From Synechococcus elongatus PCC 6301 (GTDB lineage Bacteria; Cyanobacteriota; Cyanobacteriia; Synechococcales; Synechococcaceae): a DNA stretch of 32,000 nucleotides. The notes beneath the pieces were generated by a model. It had not been told where the DNA came from. It searched no databases and saw nothing but the letters and a program-made list of their open reading frames with translations. Positions within the stretch are counted from its first letter, which is position 1, and each line of letters starts with the position of its first letter. Position numbers and translations under genes: made by a program. Shown here piece by piece: positions 323 to 19,105 of the stretch. The stretch lies in the NCBI RefSeq assembly GCF_000010065.1, contig NC_006576.1, positions 1 through 32,000 of the forward strand, read 5' to 3'.

Positions 323-1405
<1,083 letters not shown>

Positions 1406-1608
1406 TTAAGTTTTACGACGAACTCTAGGTATTCTAGCCGACATAGTGTTCATATAAGCTTCTTCTGACGAAAATTGAGCCCCTTACTCTTCATTGCTAT
1501 GCTCTACTTATCAGAAATTACTCTCAATAAAGAGAAGGCTCCCAGTAACTTTCTGGATCTGAATTGTGTTTCGGGGCAAAGTGCGATCGACTAGAAGTCC
1601 TGTATTCG

Positions 1609-1741
1609 GCAGAATCAGGGGATGCAAACGGTTCTGACGATTGATGGCCCCCATAGTCTTGACCTCGATGATGAGGTCTGGGCTGAACCGGCGGATGAAC
1701 AGGGCGATCGCATTTGCCTGACAATCGCGATCGGGGGACTA
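1609..1741 (+). repeat. Left copy of a ~133-nt direct repeat (duplicate of the RNB gene 5-prime end)
   Basis: GCAGAATCAGGGGATGCAAACGGTTCTGACGATTGATGG...GACAATCGCGATCGGGGG recurs at 2446-2580. I count about 10 mismatches by eye, roughly 92 percent identity. Confidence 0.9.
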
Positions 1742-1747
1742 GACTGA
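1622..1747 (+). pseudogene. 41-codon truncated duplicate of the RNB nuclease N-terminus
   Basis: ATG at 1622 gives MQTVLTIDGPHSLDLDDEVWAEPADEQGDRICLTIAIGGLD, then TGA at 1745-1747. The first 37 residues parallel the start of the 2459..3856 product (MQTVLTIDGPSSLDLDDGVWAEPVDEQGDRICLTIAIAG...). Confidence 0.7.
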
Positions 1748-1771
1748 AATCGTGATTGCAGTGCAAGCGTG

Positions 1772-2023
1772 ATGGCAAGTCTGACCGTTCGGAACCTGAA
1801 AGAGTCAGTGAAGGCGTCGTTGCGGCTACGAGCAGCTCGCAATCAACGCAGCTTAGAAGAGGAAGTCCGCATCATTCTGGAGCAGGCGGTAGAGCCAGAG
1901 GCTAGTGAGTTTGGGCTGGGGAGCCGCATTCATCAACGGTTTTTAGGTTTAGATGCAGACCAGATGGTCTTACCGGATCGTCCTGTCGTGACCCCAGAAT
2001 CCTGCTTTGCTGAGGATTGCTAG
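1772..2023 (+). CDS. vapB: VapB/FitA-like antitoxin, 83 aa
   Basis: MASLTVRNLKESVKASLRLRAARNQRSLEEEVRIILEQAV is the typical N-terminus of FitA/StbC-type plasmid-stability antitoxins. The ATG at 1772 sits one codon inside the track start (GTG at 1769). Its stop codon (2021-2023) overlaps the start of the downstream PIN gene. Confidence 0.85.
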   Translation: MASLTVRNLKESVKASLRLRAARNQRSLEEEVRIILEQAVEPEASEFGLGSRIHQRFLGLDADQMVLPDRPVVTPESCFAEDC

Positions 2024-2481
2024 GCGTGTTTTTGCTCGATACCAACGTAATTTCGGAGCTGTTTCGACCAATTCCGAATCCAGCAGTGTTGGCTTGGTAT
2101 GACCAAACCCCAAAACGAGAACTGTTCTTGAGTGCAATTACGGTAGCGGAGCTTGATCAAGGCGTAGCGCTTTTGCCCGAGGGTCGGCGCAAAGAAGGTC
2201 TTCGAGCTGCTGTAACAACTTTGGTGGAAATGGATTTTCGCGATCGCGTTTTGAGTTTTGATCTAGAGGCTGCTTGGCAGTATGGCGTGTTGGTGGAGGC
2301 ACGATCGCGCCAAGGACTCTCGGTTTCAGTCAATGATGCTCTGATTGCGGCGATCGCCCTATCTCGGCGCTGTGTGGTAGTGACGCGCAATCAGAAAGAC
2401 TTCTGCGGAGTTGCAGCGCTGCAGATCTTCAATCCTTTTGAGGCAGCAGAATCAGGGGATGCAGACGGTTCTGACGATTGA
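2017..2481 (+). CDS. vapC: VapC/FitB-like PIN-domain toxin
   Basis: The PIN acidic residues are visible: LLDTNV (Asp), ITVAEL (Glu), NDALIAA (Asp) and TRNQKDF. The start is TTG at 2017 or GTG at 2026, overlapping the vapB stop. The last ~12 codons (AESGDADGSDD) are read out of the right direct repeat, and the stop at 2479-2481 lies inside the RNB ORF. Confidence 0.9.
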   Translation: MLGVFLLDTNVISELFRPIPNPAVLAWYDQTPKRELFLSAITVAELDQGVALLPEGRRKEGLRAAVTTLVEMDFRDRVLSFDLEAAWQYGVLVEARSRQGLSVSVNDALIAAIALSRRCVVVTRNQKDFCGVAALQIFNPFEAAESGDADGSDD

Positions 2482-2580
2482 TGGTCCAAGTAGCCTTGAC
2501 CTCGATGATGGGGTCTGGGCTGAACCAGTGGATGAACAGGGCGATCGCATTTGCCTGACAATCGCGATCGCGGGGGTAGC
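2446..2580 (+). repeat. Right copy of the ~133-nt direct repeat
   Basis: Pairs with 1609-1741. It contains the ATG (2459) and the first ~38 codons of the intact RNB-domain gene. Confidence 0.9.
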
Positions 2581-3856
2581 GACGGCTCTGCCACATCTGG
2601 GAATCGAAGAATGCGTGGCACTGGCACGGTTGCAGTCGGTCTATCAAGGCACCCAGATGGTACGGGCAATGCTCTCGCCAGAACGGACTGAAGCATTGTC
2701 TTTGCTTCCAGGTGGGCCTCGTCCGGTGGTTTGTCTGCAAGCGTTGATCTCTCGACGGGGAGAGGTGCTGTTCTCGGAGTTCTGGGAAACCGAAGTTGAA
2801 TCTGTCGCCAAGCTCAGCTATGAGCAGGTCAATGGCGTTCTGGCTGGTAAGGAAGATCATGAACTGCGGGAAGTTCTGCGTTGGCTAGCGATCGCGGCTG
2901 GACGGTTGGATAAGAACCGGCGCGGCCTCTGGGGGCGATCGCGACAGGGAGAGTTCAGAGATGATTTGGGGTCAGTAATCACGGGCAAAGCGGAGCAGTT
3001 GATTGCTTCGACGGCGATCTTCTACAACCAGATGGCAGGCGAGAAGCTCAAGCAATCAGGCTTTCCGGCGCTGTTCCGGGTGCAAGACCCAAGACAGGAT
3101 GAGGCGATCGCGCCGTTGTTTGAGGAGCATGGTGGCAATCCAACGGTGTTAGCTCCGTTGATTAGTCACTGTTTGCCGAGAGCACAGCATCGCGTTAAAG
3201 CTGGGCTTCATTGGGCGTTGCAGTTGCCAGCCTATGCGCGATCGTCCAGTCCGCTGCGGCGCTATGAAGATTTGGTCAATCAACGGCAGTTGCTGGCGAT
3301 TTTGAGGGAGAGTCCTTCCTTCTATCCGCCAGAGCTATTGCTGGGGGTTTGCGATCGTTTGCAGGACAAGGCGACGGCGGAGGTGGAGCGGCAGAAGCAA
3401 AAGTCAGAGGAGAAGTGGCTGAGGGCAGCGTCTTCGGTCAAGCAACTAGAAACGGTGACAGAAGGACAGTTTTCAGCGGTGCTGCGACAGGTCTCGGTGA
3501 TTGGCTCGGTGCCGCCAGAGTTGGAGCAGCAGTTACGGGAGCGCTTGGAAAAAGGAAGTCTGACGCCGAAGCATGCGGCGCAGATTCTCTCGGAGGGGTT
3601 TCCTGCGGATCTGAAGCAGGGGTTGATCGACAAGCTCAGTCAGGGGGATCCGCTGCTCAATGGCCTGATGGTGCTCAATACGCTGGGGCAACTGATTGGG
3701 ACAGCTCCGCAGTTTGACTATGAGCCGGCGGAGGGGCAATGGTGTTGTCGCTTGGTTTGGCAGGAGCAACAGGTAGAGGCGATCGCTTCCTCAAAAGTCA
3801 GAGCTAGGGAACTGGCGGCACTGATGGTTCTCAAAGGAATTAGCGTGGCAGAGTAA
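2459..3856 (+). CDS. RNB-domain (RNase II/R family) exoribonuclease-like protein without CSD or S1 domains, 465 aa
   Basis: I chose the ATG at 2459 because the same ATG context is duplicated at 1622. The protein begins directly with RNB motif I (IDGPSSLDLDDGVW) and carries the motif-IV-like SSSPLRRYEDLVNQRQL. No cold-shock or S1 segments are present. The C-terminal ~190 aa are helical and unassigned. Confidence 0.8.
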   Translation: MQTVLTIDGPSSLDLDDGVWAEPVDEQGDRICLTIAIAGVATALPHLGIEECVALARLQSVYQGTQMVRAMLSPERTEALSLLPGGPRPVVCLQALISRRGEVLFSEFWETEVESVAKLSYEQVNGVLAGKEDHELREVLRWLAIAAGRLDKNRRGLWGRSRQGEFRDDLGSVITGKAEQLIASTAIFYNQMAGEKLKQSGFPALFRVQDPRQDEAIAPLFEEHGGNPTVLAPLISHCLPRAQHRVKAGLHWALQLPAYARSSSPLRRYEDLVNQRQLLAILRESPSFYPPELLLGVCDRLQDKATAEVERQKQKSEEKWLRAASSVKQLETVTEGQFSAVLRQVSVIGSVPPELEQQLRERLEKGSLTPKHAAQILSEGFPADLKQGLIDKLSQGDPLLNGLMVLNTLGQLIGTAPQFDYEPAEGQWCCRLVWQEQQVEAIASSKVRARELAALMVLKGISVAE

Positions 3857-4004
3857 TTGGGAACGATTCAGTTGAGATCGATTTAGGGATATTGAGAAGC
3901 TTGTAACCTATTAACAAAGAGATAAATCAGGTTTGAATTGTGAGTGAAGACATCACTTCTATCGATTAATTCAGCTAATCATCCACTGTTATTCTTGCTG
4001 AACC

Positions 4005-4385
4005 TCATTCATTTTCATTGTTATTTAGATTAAAATCATCAATTCCATGCACATCTATACTCTCTTTGATTTCAATTGGTGTGTTTGGATTCTCCCTGAC
4101 TTCATTGCGAACCCATTGATTAGCATCGAATGCTAACTTTTTTAGGACTATGATCGGTGTTTTTCTGTTCTCAGCAACTGCGCAATGAACCACATAATCA
4201 TGGTCTGCTGATAAGCTTTCTAATACTGCAACTGGGGTTTGGATGTTCCCTGCAACGGATGCTCGAACACTAACAAGCCTTGATTGTGCTAACTCTGTCA
4301 ATCGCCCAAGAGATGTAGTCTTCCTCTCTGCCTCAAGGATGAGTGCTTCTTCGTTTAATTTAGATTGATGCATGGCGATAATCAT
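4005..4385 (-). CDS. Leucine-rich-repeat-variant (LRV/HEAT-like) repeat protein, 126 aa
   Basis: Periodic ~23-aa repeats fit the LRV pattern: VRASVAGNIQTPVAVLESLSAD, VHCAVAENRKTPIIVLKKLAFD, VRNEVRENPNTP. The segment is AT-rich and has no HIP1 site. Confidence 0.7.
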   Translation of the reverse strand: MIIAMHQSKLNEEALILEAERKTTSLGRLTELAQSRLVSVRASVAGNIQTPVAVLESLSADHDYVVHCAVAENRKTPIIVLKKLAFDANQWVRNEVRENPNTPIEIKESIDVHGIDDFNLNNNENE

Positions 4386-4569
4386 GATTTGAGAACAAAA
4401 CTAACAGGGTAAGCTTGAATTAATAAGCCTTGTCTTATATGAGCGATCTCTGAGGGTACAATCTCTAAATCCTTGAACTTAATCACTGATGAAGAAGGGT
4501 ACTAACGATTAGTAGAAAAACTACTACACACTTCAGGGCCGCTGTGGTTGAAAAGCCGGTATTCAGGGG

Positions 4570-5064
4570 ATGTTGTGGGCGATCGCCGAGTGCTATCTGC
4601 CCTACTCTGATGGTTGAGGACGCCTCTTTGAGTCGATTTAGGGGTGTGCTTTAGGAAATGCAGCTGCTCTACATCACTAGCATTGAGCGCATGTCGTTAG
4701 ACACCATCACGCGCCAAACTTGCTCAATAGCCCAGCTTTTACTTTGGCATTGATTGTGGTAGTTCTTGCTCTGAGGCTCGGCCCCAACTCGCACAGAACC
4801 ACAGCCAAACCGAACAGTCGAGGATAACTACCAAGCTTGCTTAGCATCAGAGAGGCGGTTATCGACCCTTGTTGAATTGAAGTTGCCAGGGTCTGTCTGT
4901 AAAAACGGGGGAATAGAGCGGGAACTCATTGCAGAACGAACTAGAGCAAAGTTGAGGCTGCAAAAATTCCTCAACAGTAGCTCCCACCTAAAGATGTAGT
5001 TAGAAATCTGGGAGTTTCTATCCCTACCCTCTATCGCTAGATTCCTGCCTCCTCTCGCCCTTAG
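4570..5064 (+). pseudogene. Decayed serine recombinase (resolvase/invertase)
   Basis: Fragments appear in shifting frames, interrupted by several stops. These include [14 protein letters not shown] (compare GDxLVVxxLDRLGRS), [15 protein letters not shown] (the conserved ExERExIxERTxAGL helix) and a C-terminal HTH VVRNLGVSIPTLYR followed by a stop. Confidence 0.6.
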
Positions 5065-5288
5065 TGTGTATTTCCCCCTTGTCTCTGGTCGCCCCACAGT
5101 CTACAAAAATCCCAGCTTCTTTGCCCCTACTATTCCAGGATGATTGGATAGCGAGTTCAGAAACCGGGATTTTTGTTTAGCCTGCTAATAGTTTGTTAAA
5201 CTCAAATGTATATGTTGGGTTATGCTAGTGCTACATTTAACCTACCAAGACTCACACAACCAAAGCTGACAGACCATCAAGCTAGCCT

Positions 5289-6714: not shown

Positions 6715-6818
6715 GAGATCATTTGCTGTCCGCCTAGGTTGCCCCATGCGGCTATCGTTGGATTTTTGCTTCCTCTCGCTCTTAAAGTACGATTTTCTCC
6801 CTTTTCTCTGGCCTCCCG
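6715..6818 (+). pseudogene. Second, shorter relic of a resolvase 3-prime end (imperfect direct repeat of about 5000-5095)
   Basis: Reads ...CGYRWIFASSRS-stop, compared with ...TLYR-stop-IPASSRP-stop at 5031-5064. The following pyrimidine-rich tail is also similar (TTTTCTCCCTTTTCTCTGGCCTCCC versus TATTTCCCCCTTGTCTCTGGTCGCCCC). I estimate roughly 65-70 percent identity by eye. Confidence 0.5.
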
Positions 6819-7098: not shown

Positions 7099-7659
7099 AT
7101 GAAGGGTGGGGCTAGGGCAGGAGCGGGTCGCCCAAAAGGTAGCGGCAAGTATGGCGAACCGACCAAAGCCGTTCGTCTACCCCTGAGTGTGATTGAGCAA
7201 ATTCCCCAGATCCTAGAACAGAGATCGTCCAGAACCACTCTGAGCGAGGTCTATCGCCCGCAACGCGGTGCGGTTCTAGAACTGCCGCTCTACCAAATGC
7301 CAGTCTCAGCAGGTTTCCCTTCCCCTGCCGATGACTATATTGAGCAACGACTAGACCTGAACCGGCATCTGATTAAGAACCCCGCCGCCACCTTCATGGC
7401 ACGGGTTTCGGGCGATTCGATGATTGGGGTAGGGATCCACGACGGGGACGTGATTATCGTGGACCGTTCCCTCGAACCCCGCGATGGGCAGATTGTGATT
7501 GCAGTCTTAAACGGTGAGTTAACCGTGAAGCGTCTACGGCAAGAGCGGCAACGACTGTTTCTGCAAGCCGAGAACCCAAATTACCCCGACCTTGAGATTA
7601 CGGATGCCAGTGCCTTTCAAATCTGGGGTGTGGTCACCAATGTCATTCACGCCCTTTGA
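7099..7659 (+). CDS. umuD: UmuD-like S24 self-cleaving peptidase with a long N-terminal arm, 186 aa
   Basis: The cleavage motif [12 protein letters not shown] (Ala71-Gly72), the nucleophile in [10 protein letters not shown] and the Lys in LTVKRL are all present. The gene is followed by umuC. Confidence 0.9.
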
Positions 7660-18668: not shown

Positions 18669-18830
18669 CTAGGCGTAAGCAGCTCCTATCATTTCGTCGT
18701 TAGAAACTAATCCCTTCTTGACTAGCTTTTCGGCGAGTGCTAGAAGTAAAGCTGCTTTCCGCTCATCTCCACAACGAAGAGCTTGTTTGCGTTCAGAAAT
18801 TAACTCGAAGTAGTAGTATCTCTTTGCCAT
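18669..18830 (-). CDS. Small protein, 53 aa (paralogue A)
   Basis: Below the ORF-track cutoff. AAGGAG lies 8 nt upstream of the ATG at 18830. Translation: MAKRYYYFELISERKQALRCGDERKAALLLALAEKLVKKGLVSNDEMIGAAYA. It is 72 percent identical to the neighbouring 53-aa ORF. Confidence 0.6.
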   Translation of the reverse strand: MAKRYYYFELISERKQALRCGDERKAALLLALAEKLVKKGLVSNDEMIGAAYA

Positions 18831-18943: not shown

Positions 18944-19105
18944 CTAAATATAAGCACCTGCTAACAATTCATCATCAGAGACCAAGTCTTTCTCGACTAG
19001 CTTTTCAGCCAGTGCTAATAGTAATGCTGCCTTTCGTTCATCCCCACAGAACAGAGCCTGCTTCCGTTCAGCCATTAAATCAACGTAGGAATATTTCTTA
19101 GCCAT
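18944..19105 (-). CDS. Small protein, 53 aa (paralogue B)
   Basis: Below the ORF-track cutoff. GAGAGG lies upstream of the ATG at 19105. Translation: MAKKYSYVDLMAERKQALFCGDERKAALLLALAEKLVEKDLVSDDELLAGAYI. The 18-residue core is identical to paralogue A despite 9 synonymous nucleotide differences. Confidence 0.6.
   Translation of the reverse strand: MAKKYSYVDLMAERKQALFCGDERKAALLLALAEKLVEKDLVSDDELLAGAYI

Follow-up and report, generated by a model that had tools for sequence, protein, structure and literature searches.

How does the start of a ribonuclease gene come to stand on both sides of a toxin-antitoxin pair? The question is raised by a locus of Synechococcus elongatus that lies in a 32-kb window (the whole stretch of DNA analysed, 32,000 nucleotides of strain PCC 6301, which corresponds to CP000100.1 ~1,599,031-1,631,030 in the numbering of S. 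elongatus PCC 7942; positions below are those of the window). We find that the two repeats at this locus are RNB 5' ends, the left one a silent relic and the right one the working start, and that they flank a self-contained FitAB-like vapBC module with its own leader. The relic-vapBC-RNB structure probably arose by recombination associated with HIP1, between RNB paralogues carried by plasmids and chromosomes, which would make its origin a known type of process in a modestly novel form. The locus sits in the main genetic model cyanobacterium and joins an unusual ribonuclease of the RNB-only kind to a toxin-antitoxin pair in one operon.

The repeated gene start and the genes beside it

A repeat search aligned positions 1609-1742 with 2446-2579 as direct repeats of 134 nt each that are 91% identical (122/134) without indels, which bears out the first-pass annotation of this DNA, where repeats of ~133 nt and ~92% identity had been placed at 1609-1741 and 2446-2580. 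A 40-mer from the repeat unit occurred exactly twice in the 32-kb window, as against 0 occurrences expected from shuffles, and no further copies of at least 45 nt were found there. Each copy consists of the ribosome-binding site and the first ~40 codons of the RNB-only ribonuclease gene Synpcc7942_1546, with the ATG 13 nt inside the copy and a product, MQTVLTIDGP(H/S)SLDLDD..., that carries RNB motif I. The translations of both copies thus agree with the earlier reading of them as an ATG and the first ~38 RNB codons including motif I, and the left copy does hold a 41-codon dead-end ORF while the right one is the true start of the 465-codon gene. The true homology of the left copy stops at the HIP1-type site near its 3' end, the last 8 nt of the apparent repeat (1735-1742) being vapB leader. 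A 9-nt insertion, GATGAACAG, is common to these two copies only, and the left and right copies of one genome are closer to each other than to the counterparts in the other strain, a likeness that, judged from the alignments, would require gene conversion or independent events. A count by hand on the alignment showed the derived changes at the 12 differences between the copies to be balanced between them, and therefore gave no sign of faster decay of the left copy. The coordinates of all features are collected in Table 1.

Table 1. Features of the repeat locus (window positions) and RNB 5' relics at other loci
Feature	Position	Strand	Remarks
HIP1-like site GCGATCGA	1583..1590	+	19 nt 5' of left copy; read from sequence
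X_L, left copy (RNB relic)	1609..1734	+	Ribosome-binding site and codons 1-38; apparent repeat extends to 1742
Dead-end ORF Synpcc7942_1543	1622..1747	+	41 codons, in left copy
HIP1-1 GCGATCGC	1704..1711	.	Inside left copy; mosaic crossover point in other replicons
Promoter-like site over junction	1718..1745	+	-35-like CTGACA (RNB relic), -10-like TAGACT (vapBC module); consensus scan
HIP1-2 GCGATCGG, 7/8	1727..1734	.	Single novel junction, RNB relic/vapB leader
vapB leader	1751..1777	+	Two operator-like direct repeats: CGTGATTGCA 1751-1760, CGTGATGGCA 1768-1777
vapB antitoxin, FitA-like ribbon-helix-helix, Synpcc7942_1544	1772..2023	+	Pfam PF22513 FitA-like_RHH, E=4e-17, residues 2-40
vapC PIN-domain toxin, Synpcc7942_1545	2026..2481	+	Pfam PF01850, E=1e-15
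Deletion scar	2441..2446	.	~40 nt judged against IITB6; base-by-base alignment
X_R, right copy (live RNB 5' end)	2446..2579	+	HIP1 sites 2541-2548, 2564-2571
RNB-only ribonuclease, Synpcc7942_1546	2459..3856	+	465 aa; Pfam PF00773, E=1e-34; no CSD/S1 domain
RNB 5' relic	L024 ~3150-3191		
RNB 5' relic	L024 5719-5842		HIP1 at both ends
RNB 5' relic	L024 7466-7558		
RNB 5' relic	L016 3887-3966		
RNB 5' relics	L026 12340-12505, 18264-18426		

Similarity between the 28 nt on the 5' side of the left copy and the spacer of S. elongatus IITB6 is marginal (p~0.016), and an extension of the copy to the HIP1-like site there was rejected as marginal (p~0.016-0.04); from its sequence, this site may correspond to the HIP1 found ahead of the RNB gene in IITB6. 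A third, older relic at 1463-1491 was likewise set aside as marginal (p=0.003 against the left copy, 0.37 against the right).

Between the copies, vapB is encoded first and ends 2 nt ahead of vapC. In domain content and gene order the module is like VapBC (FitAB-like) systems, with a ribbon-helix-helix antitoxin first and a PIN toxin of the ~130-145 aa class; it is unlike them in that vapC runs into the next gene and ends in a tail of 11 foreign residues. As had been noted before, vapC lacks a stop codon of its own and reads into the right repeat: it terminates at 2479-2481, 23 nt inside the RNB gene and in a different reading frame, and its final 11 codons (about 12 in the earlier count), AESGDADGSDD, come from the repeat. 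Homologues of VapC at E<=1e-10 number 2704, are typically 138-143 aa long and align to residues 1 to ~139 of the PCC 7942 protein, which the read-through tail lengthens to 151 aa; a VapC, P0212, is 85% identical.

The ribonuclease resembles the RNase II/R (RNB) family in its catalytic motifs, with D8, D14, D16 and D17 of motif I (DxxxxxDxDD) and SSPLRR (SPxRRY motif) invariant in 10 relatives. It differs from that family by the absence of cold-shock/S1 domains flanking RNB, by an uncharacterised C-terminal ~180 aa and by co-transcription with a toxin-antitoxin pair; the protein begins at RNB profile position 7, and no Pfam match was found in it beyond RNB. PADLOC gave no match for vapB, vapC, RNB or the LRV protein, and no mention of the locus tags of these genes was found in the main texts of papers.

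Transcription from the relic/leader junction

Published expression data place the start of the operon at the edge of the relic. Transcript #918 of Vijayan 2011 runs from 1,600,767 to 1,602,886 with three ORFs, i.e., it is a vapB-vapC-RNB mRNA, and its 5' end (coverage-based, as are the 5' ends in that study) corresponds to window position ~1737, at the junction of relic and leader. Read densities in Vijayan 2011 Table S5 are 0.96 reads/nt for ORF 1543, 13.2 for 1544, 5.2 for 1545 and 2.5 for 1546; with a cut-off of 2 reads/nt, ORF 1543 falls below the threshold and is essentially untranscribed under standard growth. The earlier suggestion of one transcript from a native promoter upstream of 1622 therefore holds for vapB, vapC and RNB, which are co-transcribed, but not for the promoter or the decoy ORF, given the 5' end at 1737 and the 0.96 reads/nt. 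The UTEX 2973 dRNA-seq TSS table, to the extent of the matches listed, contains no entry for the locus.

The promoter-like site found by the consensus scan spans this junction. Its -10-like element is conserved in IITB6 and in the vapBC locus of another cyanobacterium (L031), reading TAGACT/TAAACT. The two direct repeats in the vapB leader, both of which read CACGAT... in IITB6, are a candidate antitoxin operator.

These data bear on whether the relic is kept for a function of its own, as a small protein or upstream ORF, or by providing vapBC-RNB with its promoter/-35 region, an explanation we hold to be unlikely and one that is compatible with any of the origin models considered below since it concerns maintenance. 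The relic ORF is intact with its ATG, the mapped 5' end falls in its last bases and the -35-like CTGACA lies within it; the dN/dS between left and right copies is ~0.28, a value that is uninformative because it rests on 12 differences only. Against such a role, the ORF is read at the low density given above, relics elsewhere have lost the ATG (plasmid p11801_1) or are interrupted (IITB6), and the spacing from the CTGGCA box to TAGACT in IITB6 is too long for a promoter. Transposon mutants of Synpcc7942_1543 are viable, and mutants also exist in vapB and in vapC. As to persistence, recombination between the repeats would delete vapBC, and the toxin-antitoxin module may select against this loss, while the relic may supply upstream promoter sequence.

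Related loci and HIP1 at the junctions

The same relic-vapBC-RNB layout is present in S. elongatus IITB6 at a different chromosomal locus, ~81-83% identical at the nucleotide level. The chromosomal vapB-vapC-RNB of that strain is ~80% identical to window 1727-3828, with about equal nucleotide identity across the three genes (vapB 83%, vapC 81%, RNB 81.5%), and vapB is 89% identical in amino acids. Duplication of the RNB 5' end around vapBC, as proposed in the first-pass annotation, is thus confirmed, but an insertion event specific to PCC 7942 is not. The IITB6 vapC orthologue is 142 aa long, ends in ...NPFEPSV* with its own stop, and is followed by a 44-nt HIP1-containing spacer before RNB; because of this stop and spacer, the missing vapC stop of PCC 7942 is attributed to a later deletion of ~40 nt that took out the final 3 codons of vapC together with its stop, a HIP1 site and the greater part of the spacer. 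By this comparison, the deletion occurred in the PCC 7942 lineage and left vapC to end inside RNB. That exactly vapB and vapC lie between the copies is accordingly true of PCC 7942, but the tight fit is secondary.

Unoccupied states exist for both partners. The RNB gene occurs by itself on plasmids carried by S. elongatus IITB3/5/6/8, and vapBC stands alone in L031, where it is 61% identical and adjoins rnpB; since both occur alone, vapBC and RNB were joined at some point. The RNB-only gene family occurs on plasmids and chromosomes in the S. elongatus clade, and within IITB6 the chromosomal and plasmid RNB genes are 93.6% identical, rising to 99.5% over nt 151-350, both being ~81% identical to that of PCC 7942. 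An ancient PIN-RNB operon across cyanobacteria was considered and rejected: the PIN gene beside distant RNB genes (L013/L018/L019) is only 26% identical and has another antitoxin, the upstream genes in other relatives are unrelated, and there are no N-terminal relics outside the S. elongatus clade.

At three more places, RNB 5' relics flank cargo of another kind, namely, a GAF/GerE regulator, a DUF4351 gene, and pVip-like (viperin-like) plus Avs2-like defence genes. The repeat unit is therefore not dispersed at unrelated loci, an outcome that would have spoken against the duplicative reading, but recurs as relics wherever the RNB family sits. The relics all belong to a single clade and to a small number of replicons, and some of the junctions may be related by descent. 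A genome scan with the RNB alignment returned 6 loci, the S. elongatus representative being absent; in metagenome scans, a DNA pattern of the repeat unit gave 0 matches and the RNB alignment gave nothing new.

The relic ends drew attention to HIP1, a palindrome (GCGATCGC) and the most over-represented octamer in cyanobacterial genomes, whose function is debated. It has been proposed, among other things, to be a methylation target, an element of nucleoid structure, a signal for DNA uptake or a Chi-like signal. In PCC 7942, the single novel junction (1727-1734) lies in a HIP1-type site; in IITB6, GCGATCGC precedes the vapB leader at the same place, such that the left junction is inside HIP1 in both strains, and it is suggestive from these sequences that the IITB6 left relic shares the PCC 7942 junction. 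The homology of the L031 vapBC begins only at CTAAACTG (window 1739), 4-5 nt past HIP1. Relic 3' ends lie within 2 nt of HIP1 in 4 of 6 cases (binomial P~9e-4), both p11801_1 relics ending away from it, and at HIP1-1 two left-hand sequences are joined to three right-hand ones in five different pairings. Neither PCC 7942 copy has its 5' boundary at an exact HIP1. Across five loci, 37 of 200 homology-block endpoints fall within 3 nt of an exact HIP1 as against 6.4 expected, and 0 of 2000 simulations reach 37, an enrichment that may be inflated as HIP1 is dense (~2 per kb) and conserved and fading alignments may therefore stop there.

Recombination at HIP1 has precedents. Site-specific plasmid recombination associated with HIP1 at GGCGATCGCC in PCC 7002, and deletion or illegitimate recombination between HIP1 sites in S. 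elongatus PCC 6301/7942, are summarised by Elhai 2015 (PMC4390886), who also cites HIP1-promoted recombination of cloned sequences in PCC 7942 and E. coli as inefficient; a Chi-like or uptake role for HIP1 in transformation was proposed by Kamoku and Nielsen 2024. The locus is like these cases in having breakpoints in HIP1, in the same species group, with plasmids involved and a naturally competent host, and unlike them in that a segmental duplication leaves gene-start relics around cargo, in natural genomes as opposed to cloned test constructs, and recurrently at one gene family.

Origin of the duplicated gene start

We favor a route in which recombination took place between a second RNB locus and a segment carrying vapBC followed by an RNB 5' end. 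Ordinary homology within RNB would have joined one side, and the other would have been joined by a HIP1 in RNB codons 36-38 joined to a HIP1 just 5' of the vapB leader; because the incoming segment carried its own RNB 5' end, the resident 5' end stayed behind as the relic. The segment could have come from a paralogous locus that lay on a different replicon or chromosome copy, or else from a small circle that was cut out between two HIP1 sites and re-integrated in Campbell style; neither a circular intermediate nor a donor locus was observed. Among the IITB6 relics, the leftmost has the highest similarity to the live copy (95%), which does not fit simple sequential stacking. The published transcript shows how the product is expressed, with one vapB-vapC-RNB mRNA from the relic/leader junction and the relic ORF excluded. 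One illegitimate HIP1 junction plus RNB homology gives the observed product, so the previously invoked mechanism of unknown nature for a target duplication of >100 bp is unneeded. This route is like Campbell-type integration, or homology-facilitated illegitimate recombination, as known from naturally transformable bacteria, in pairing one homologous anchor with one microhomology join and in the direct duplication of the homologous segment around the inserted DNA; it is unlike them in that there is no vector or marker and the microhomology is a genome-wide palindrome.

S. elongatus is polyploid, and the repeats might instead stem from a tandem duplication in place, in which a vapBC-RNB operon already existed and the HIP1 of RNB codons 36-38 met the HIP1 5' of the leader in an unequal sister-chromosome exchange or a replication template switch; this would have duplicated the leader, vapBC and the RNB 5' end, and the upstream vapBC would then have been deleted, with the RNB relic left over. 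The RNB-HIP1/leader junction is the exact product of such an exchange, and the PCC 7942 copies are mutual closest relatives with their private 9-nt insertion. We nevertheless regard this origin as unlikely: each case would need a second precise deletion, nothing of a second vapBC was found upstream of the left copy, relics around unrelated cargo on plasmids are left unexplained, and stand-alone RNB genes are available as recipients.

A broader possibility, to us a long shot, is that the RNB 5' end with its HIP1 pair is a recurrent, integrase-free landing pad, where toxin-antitoxin and anti-phage cargo (vapBC, a DUF4351 protein, viperin-like plus Avs2-like genes) is captured, stacked and swapped between S. 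elongatus replicons by crossover at HIP1. An RNB-start relic would remain after every such event, and the process might run by way of HIP1-excised circles or with help from the neighbouring HNH endonuclease. If the landing-pad reading were true, HIP1, with a role unknown for ~30 years, would be a site of module exchange; if the pattern is not general, the locus would represent ordinary duplication and decay around mobile accessory genes.

Less probable still, and in our view very unlikely, is site-specific integration, with the cargo as remnants of integrative elements whose att site copies the RNB 5' end and whose integrase was lost, or with breaks made by an HNH homing enzyme. Such an integration would restore the gene and leave repeats of the attL/attR type. 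The series relic, cargo, live 5' end does recur with diverse cargo, and the target ORF is reconstituted each time; moreover, HNH endonuclease genes (57% identical homologues) adjoin relics on p11801_1 and the IITB6 chromosome, and p11801_1 also has a tyrosine recombinase gene ~5 kb away. However, none of the four or five cargo segments holds an integrase or recombinase, nor was one found beside them or near the window locus, no HNH gene was found in the window or in L002, relic lengths of about 86, 126 and 165 nt at different loci leave no fixed core, and the 0.7-kb vapBC segment is too small for a recombinase. Integrative elements that bring a replacement gene end (phage 21/e14 at icd; tRNA-gene islands) share with this locus the direct repeats of the target end, the regenerated ORF and a displaced fragment, but here it is the 5' rather than the 3' end, relic length is variable and no integrase stands at the segment end.

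Integron cassette arrays often carry toxin-antitoxin cassettes. The loci are like such arrays in promoter-proximal stacking, small toxin-antitoxin or defence cargo and repeats of ~100 nt or more, and unlike them in the lack of IntI, in repeats that are coding sequence and not attC hairpins, and in cargo of both orientations with its own promoters. An integron/attC reading was rejected, as no recombinase is among the genes called around the locus, the repeats are coding and the folds are unconvincing: folding either strand of each copy as single-stranded DNA gave z-scores of -1.35 to -2.42, with a local HIP1-HIP1 stem as the sole stem and no attC-like hairpin.

A transposition-like duplicative insertion of vapBC into RNB by an undescribed mechanism is highly improbable, for while the cassette is bracketed by target direct repeats and stand-alone RNB genes exist, the same layout occurs with other cargo types, IITB6 departs from the tight fit, the junction lies in a hyper-abundant palindrome, and neither a transposase nor an integrase nor terminal inverted repeats are present. 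A transposon or IS insertion was rejected on similar grounds, with no inverted repeats flanking 1743-2445, no transposase, and a duplication of 126-134 nt whose length varies by locus.

Under the favored HIP1-associated route, the PCC 7942 locus and its relatives would be natural HIP1 recombination junctions with a testable product consisting of relic, cargo and live gene. The annotation of Synpcc7942_1543 is to be corrected to a gene relic, and the older annotation of Synpcc7942_1544 as 'panthotenate metabolism flavoprotein' is wrong, the gene being the vapB antitoxin. The VapC C terminus, truncated and then extended, is relevant to studies of these genes and to isiA-proximal engineering.

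Repeated RNB gene start around vapBC

The window corresponds to about 1,599,031-1,631,030 of the S. elongatus PCC 7942 chromosome (CP000100.1) and starts within isiB/isiA. By repeat search, the 5' end of the RNB ribonuclease gene was found in two direct copies of 134 nt each, at 1609-1742 and 2446-2579, which are 91% identical (122 of 134 bases) with no indels. Exactly two matches to a 40-mer of the unit were counted in the window, compared to none in 100 shuffles, and no additional copy of at least 45 nt was detected within the 32 kb. An ATG lies 13 nt after the start of each copy and opens the product MQTVLTIDGP(H/S)SLDLDD..., which contains the first catalytic motif of the RNB domain. The great majority of VapC homologues, from a search of 1.84 billion representative proteins, are 138-143 aa long, and they align to residues 1 to approximately 139 of the window protein. 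Because the repeat begins at vapC codon 141, it supplies both the 11-codon tail of the gene (AESGDADGSDD) and its stop (2479-2481). The domain calls, the repeat search and the homologue lengths bear out what the first-pass annotation had described of the repeats, the ORFs, vapBC between them and the vapC stop.

Genes at the repeat in the window, and cargo found in the same layout
Feature	Coordinates	Replicon	Description
Left-copy ORF	1622-1747	window	Synpcc7942_1543; dead end, 41 codons
vapB	1772-2023	window	Synpcc7942_1544; FitA-like ribbon-helix-helix; between the copies
vapC	2026-2481	window	Synpcc7942_1545; PIN; between the copies
RNB gene	2459-3856	window	Synpcc7942_1546; 465 codons, opened by the right copy
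Cargo: vapBC		PCC 7942 and IITB6 chromosomes	
Cargo: GAF/GerE regulator region		IITB6	outer layer
Cargo: DUF4351 gene		pIITB6_1	
Cargo: 5.7-kb cluster		p11801_1	viperin-like radical SAM protein and Avs2-like STAND ATPase

A 2020 RB-TnSeq supplement carries an older label for Synpcc7942_1544, "panthotenate metabolism flavoprotein"; this ORF (1772-2023) actually encodes a FitA-like antitoxin. Upstream of the left copy, 1463-1491 is 72% identical over 29 nt to RNB codons 4-13 (shuffle P of 0.003 against the left copy and 0.37 against the right), and could be an older third relic or a chance match.

RNB and vapBC in relatives

The nearest RNB orthologues beyond the PCC 7942 group (88-90% amino acid identity) are encoded on 44.7- to 50-kb plasmids of S. 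elongatus IITB3, IITB5, IITB6 and IITB8, near a CyRepA1 replication gene and with no vapBC upstream; homology between plasmid and chromosomal RNB extends from about 12 nt before the ATG to the stop codon. A stand-alone vapBC, 61% identical, was found on a Logan contig with RNase P RNA downstream, and the leader it has in common with the window begins at CTAAACTG, i.e., window 1739 (CTAGACTG), and contains a -10-like box and ATCRTGAT repeats. Since RNB alone and vapBC alone both occur, the two parts were joined at some time.

A vapB-vapC-RNB trio is also present on the IITB6 chromosome (locus L024), with about 80% nucleotide identity to window 1727-3828, at a different site where GAF/GerE, glycosyltransferase and CrtO genes are the neighbors instead of isiA. 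Divergence from PCC 7942 is about equal along the trio (83% identity for vapB, 81% for vapC and 81.5% for RNB), and RNB 5' relics lie upstream of vapB at L024 5719-5842 (fragment A) and 7466-7558 (fragment B). The IITB6 VapC is 86% identical and of normal length (142 aa, ending in NPFEPSV and a stop); its gene ends in a TGA of its own, and between this and RNB come a HIP1 site (HIP1 being the abundant cyanobacterial octamer palindrome) and a 44-nt spacer. Base-by-base alignment revealed that PCC 7942 lacks about 40 nt at this boundary; thus the missing vapC stop, previously taken as a trait of the insertion, is secondary, and so is the cassette's "exact fit".

In IITB6, the RNB gene of the chromosome and that of the plasmid (L024 8474-9853 and L016 5019-6404, respectively) are 93.6% identical overall, each about 81% identical to PCC 7942, with 99.5% identity over nt 151-350 compared to 93-96% elsewhere. 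The tract is suggestive of recent gene conversion between the replicons, a pattern indicating that RNB paralogues on different replicons exchange sequence.

In two marine cyanobacterial MAGs (L013/L018 635-1036 and L019 ~3234-3818), a 41-42% RNB relative is directly preceded by the gene for a different PIN toxin, which is 26% identical to the window VapC and is paired with a non-RHH antitoxin; this PIN-RNB adjacency is a second and apparently independent one. Three distant relatives have a conserved 117-aa ORF directly downstream of RNB (L014 3551-3904, L017 3014-3367 and L020 3725-4078), with an AbrB-like Pfam match in L014 and L017. S. elongatus lacks this ORF.

HIP1 sites and the origin of the layout

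In PCC 7942, the RNB likeness of the left copy ends at GCGATCGG (1727-1734), the second HIP1-type octamer of the unit, and in IITB6 GCGATCGC occupies the equivalent position before the vapB leader. As vapC-spacer-RNB on the right is the native operon order, this relic/leader junction is the sole novel junction required. Fragment A, 95% identical to the live copy, has HIP1 at both ends; the first HIP1 position is where fragment B is broken, and the second is where the pIITB6_1 relic terminates. L024 ~3150-3191 is a HIP1-to-HIP1 piece followed by AACGGCTGTTCT, the same sequence as after fragment A, from which it differs by precise loss of the stretch between two HIP1 sites. Across replicons, two left-hand and three right-hand sequences meet at the first HIP1 position in five combinations. 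Both p11801_1 relics end away from HIP1; overall, HIP1 is no more than 2 nt away from 4 of 6 relic 3' ends, compared to about 9% expected (P ~ 9e-4). For homology blocks between five S. elongatus-lineage loci, exact HIP1 was found within 3 nt of 37 of 200 distinct endpoints, compared to 6.4 expected and with none of 2,000 simulations reaching 37, an enrichment to be read knowing that HIP1 sites are themselves conserved and that fading alignments may tend to stop there.

The layout of relic, cargo and live or decayed RNB 5' end occurs four to five times. Between the two p11801_1 relics (L026 12598-17949) are encoded the viperin-like radical SAM protein (PADLOC pVip, E = 1e-18), a DUF6375 protein and the Avs2-like STAND ATPase (E = 4e-99); this plasmid additionally encodes TIR, macro-domain and AbiEi genes.

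In the simplest account, which we infer from these comparisons, a locus carrying vapBC ahead of RNB would have recombined with a different RNB locus. On one side, the HIP1 octamer within RNB codons 36-38 would have been joined illegitimately, in a single exchange, to the HIP1 octamer preceding the vapB leader; on the other side, ordinary homologous exchange would have taken place within RNB. Since the incoming DNA would bring its own RNB start, the resident start would be left as a relic. Equivalently, a small circle excised at HIP1 and bearing leader, vapBC and RNB 5' end could have integrated by the Campbell route. A duplicative joining of the toxin-antitoxin module to the ribonuclease gene start, as first proposed, is thus retained, while the unknown mechanism invoked for it is not needed, as HIP1 exchange and RNB homology would suffice. 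HIP1-associated recombination and a Chi-like or uptake role of HIP1 both have literature precedent (PMC4390886; bioRxiv 2024.09.10.611283; bioRxiv 2026.06.24.733823).

The structures in PCC 7942 and IITB6 may stem from separate events or from a single event followed by gene conversion. On one hand, copies resemble each other more within each genome than between genomes; on the other, the sequence immediately to the left of the junction in IITB6 looks RNB-derived. Tandem duplication in place via the same HIP1 pair, with one vapBC copy lost afterwards, is a rival to the exchange between loci. A site-specific system driven by an integrase or HNH enzyme could be suggested by small homologous HNH endonuclease genes (57% amino acid identity) adjoining RNB relics on p11801_1 (L026 11931-12308) and the IITB6 chromosome (L024 3392-3715), but these are found at two of the loci only, with none in the window, and no recombinase was found in or beside any cargo segment.

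The VapBC and RNB components are of known kinds, and their joining probably represents one variant of recombination driven by short repeats and homology, a known process. What is new is that relics of a gene start recur around cargo of the defence type and are associated with HIP1.

Expression and flanking regions

Transcript #918 of Vijayan et al. 2011 (PMC3219970, Table S1), on the plus strand, covers three ORFs from Synpcc7942_1544 to 1546, with a 35-nt 5' UTR, a 3' end at 1,602,886 and a predicted 5' end at 1,600,767 (window 1737), which is approximate because 5' ends were coverage-based. Reads per nt were 13.2, 5.2 and 2.5 for 1544, 1545 and 1546, respectively, and 0.96 for 1543, with a cut-off of 2 for "transcribed" (PMC3219970). 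A consensus scan identified a -35-like CTGACA at 1718-1723 in the relic and a -10-like TAGACT at 1740-1745 in the vapBC module, the latter kept in IITB6 and the stand-alone vapBC. Altogether, transcript extent, coverage and promoter-like boxes indicate that vapB, vapC and RNB form one operon beginning at the junction. The single transcript anticipated by the first-pass annotation is therefore confirmed for these three genes, but not its start upstream of 1622: under standard conditions, no "native" RNB promoter drives the relic ORF. RB-TnSeq data include mutants of each of the four ORFs, which are therefore all non-essential.

The vapB leader has direct repeats at 1751-1760 (CGTGATTGCA) and 1768-1777 (CGTGATGGCA), both CACGAT... 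in IITB6 (L024 7726-7752); such parallel change in both half-sites is as expected of an operator co-evolving with its antitoxin, making this a putative operator.

In L025, a locus of another S. elongatus-like lineage, homology to the window extends no further than 87 nt upstream of isiA, and the whole block is missing from the site. Two short window segments on either side of the formamidase gene, 4981-5088 and 6754-6812, are similar to the 3' part of a resolvase/transposase-like ORF of helix-turn-helix type (L025 176-285), and in an S. elongatus-like lineage other than that of the window this ORF lies directly beside isiA, in inverted orientation. The flank of isiA thus looks like a hot spot for rearrangement. 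The known isiA antisense RNA IsrR was detected at 781-958 (plus strand; Rfam 107 bits, E = 2e-21) inside isiA (323-1351, minus strand).

The region downstream of RNB looks foreign too, given the low GC of 3860-5200 (0.38-0.48 compared to ~0.55 in its neighbors), which holds an LRV-repeat gene (4005-4385, minus strand). A dispersed element of ~115-140 nt with GATTTAGGG motifs and a central HIP1 lies downstream of RNB in PCC 7942 (4541-4655) and IITB6, and once more elsewhere in IITB6 (L024 10720-10834 and 15181-15295, minus strand), with 77-81% identity. A second direct repeat in the window, at 18676-18830 and 18951-19105, is 155 nt long and 75% identical, with the copies 275 nt apart.
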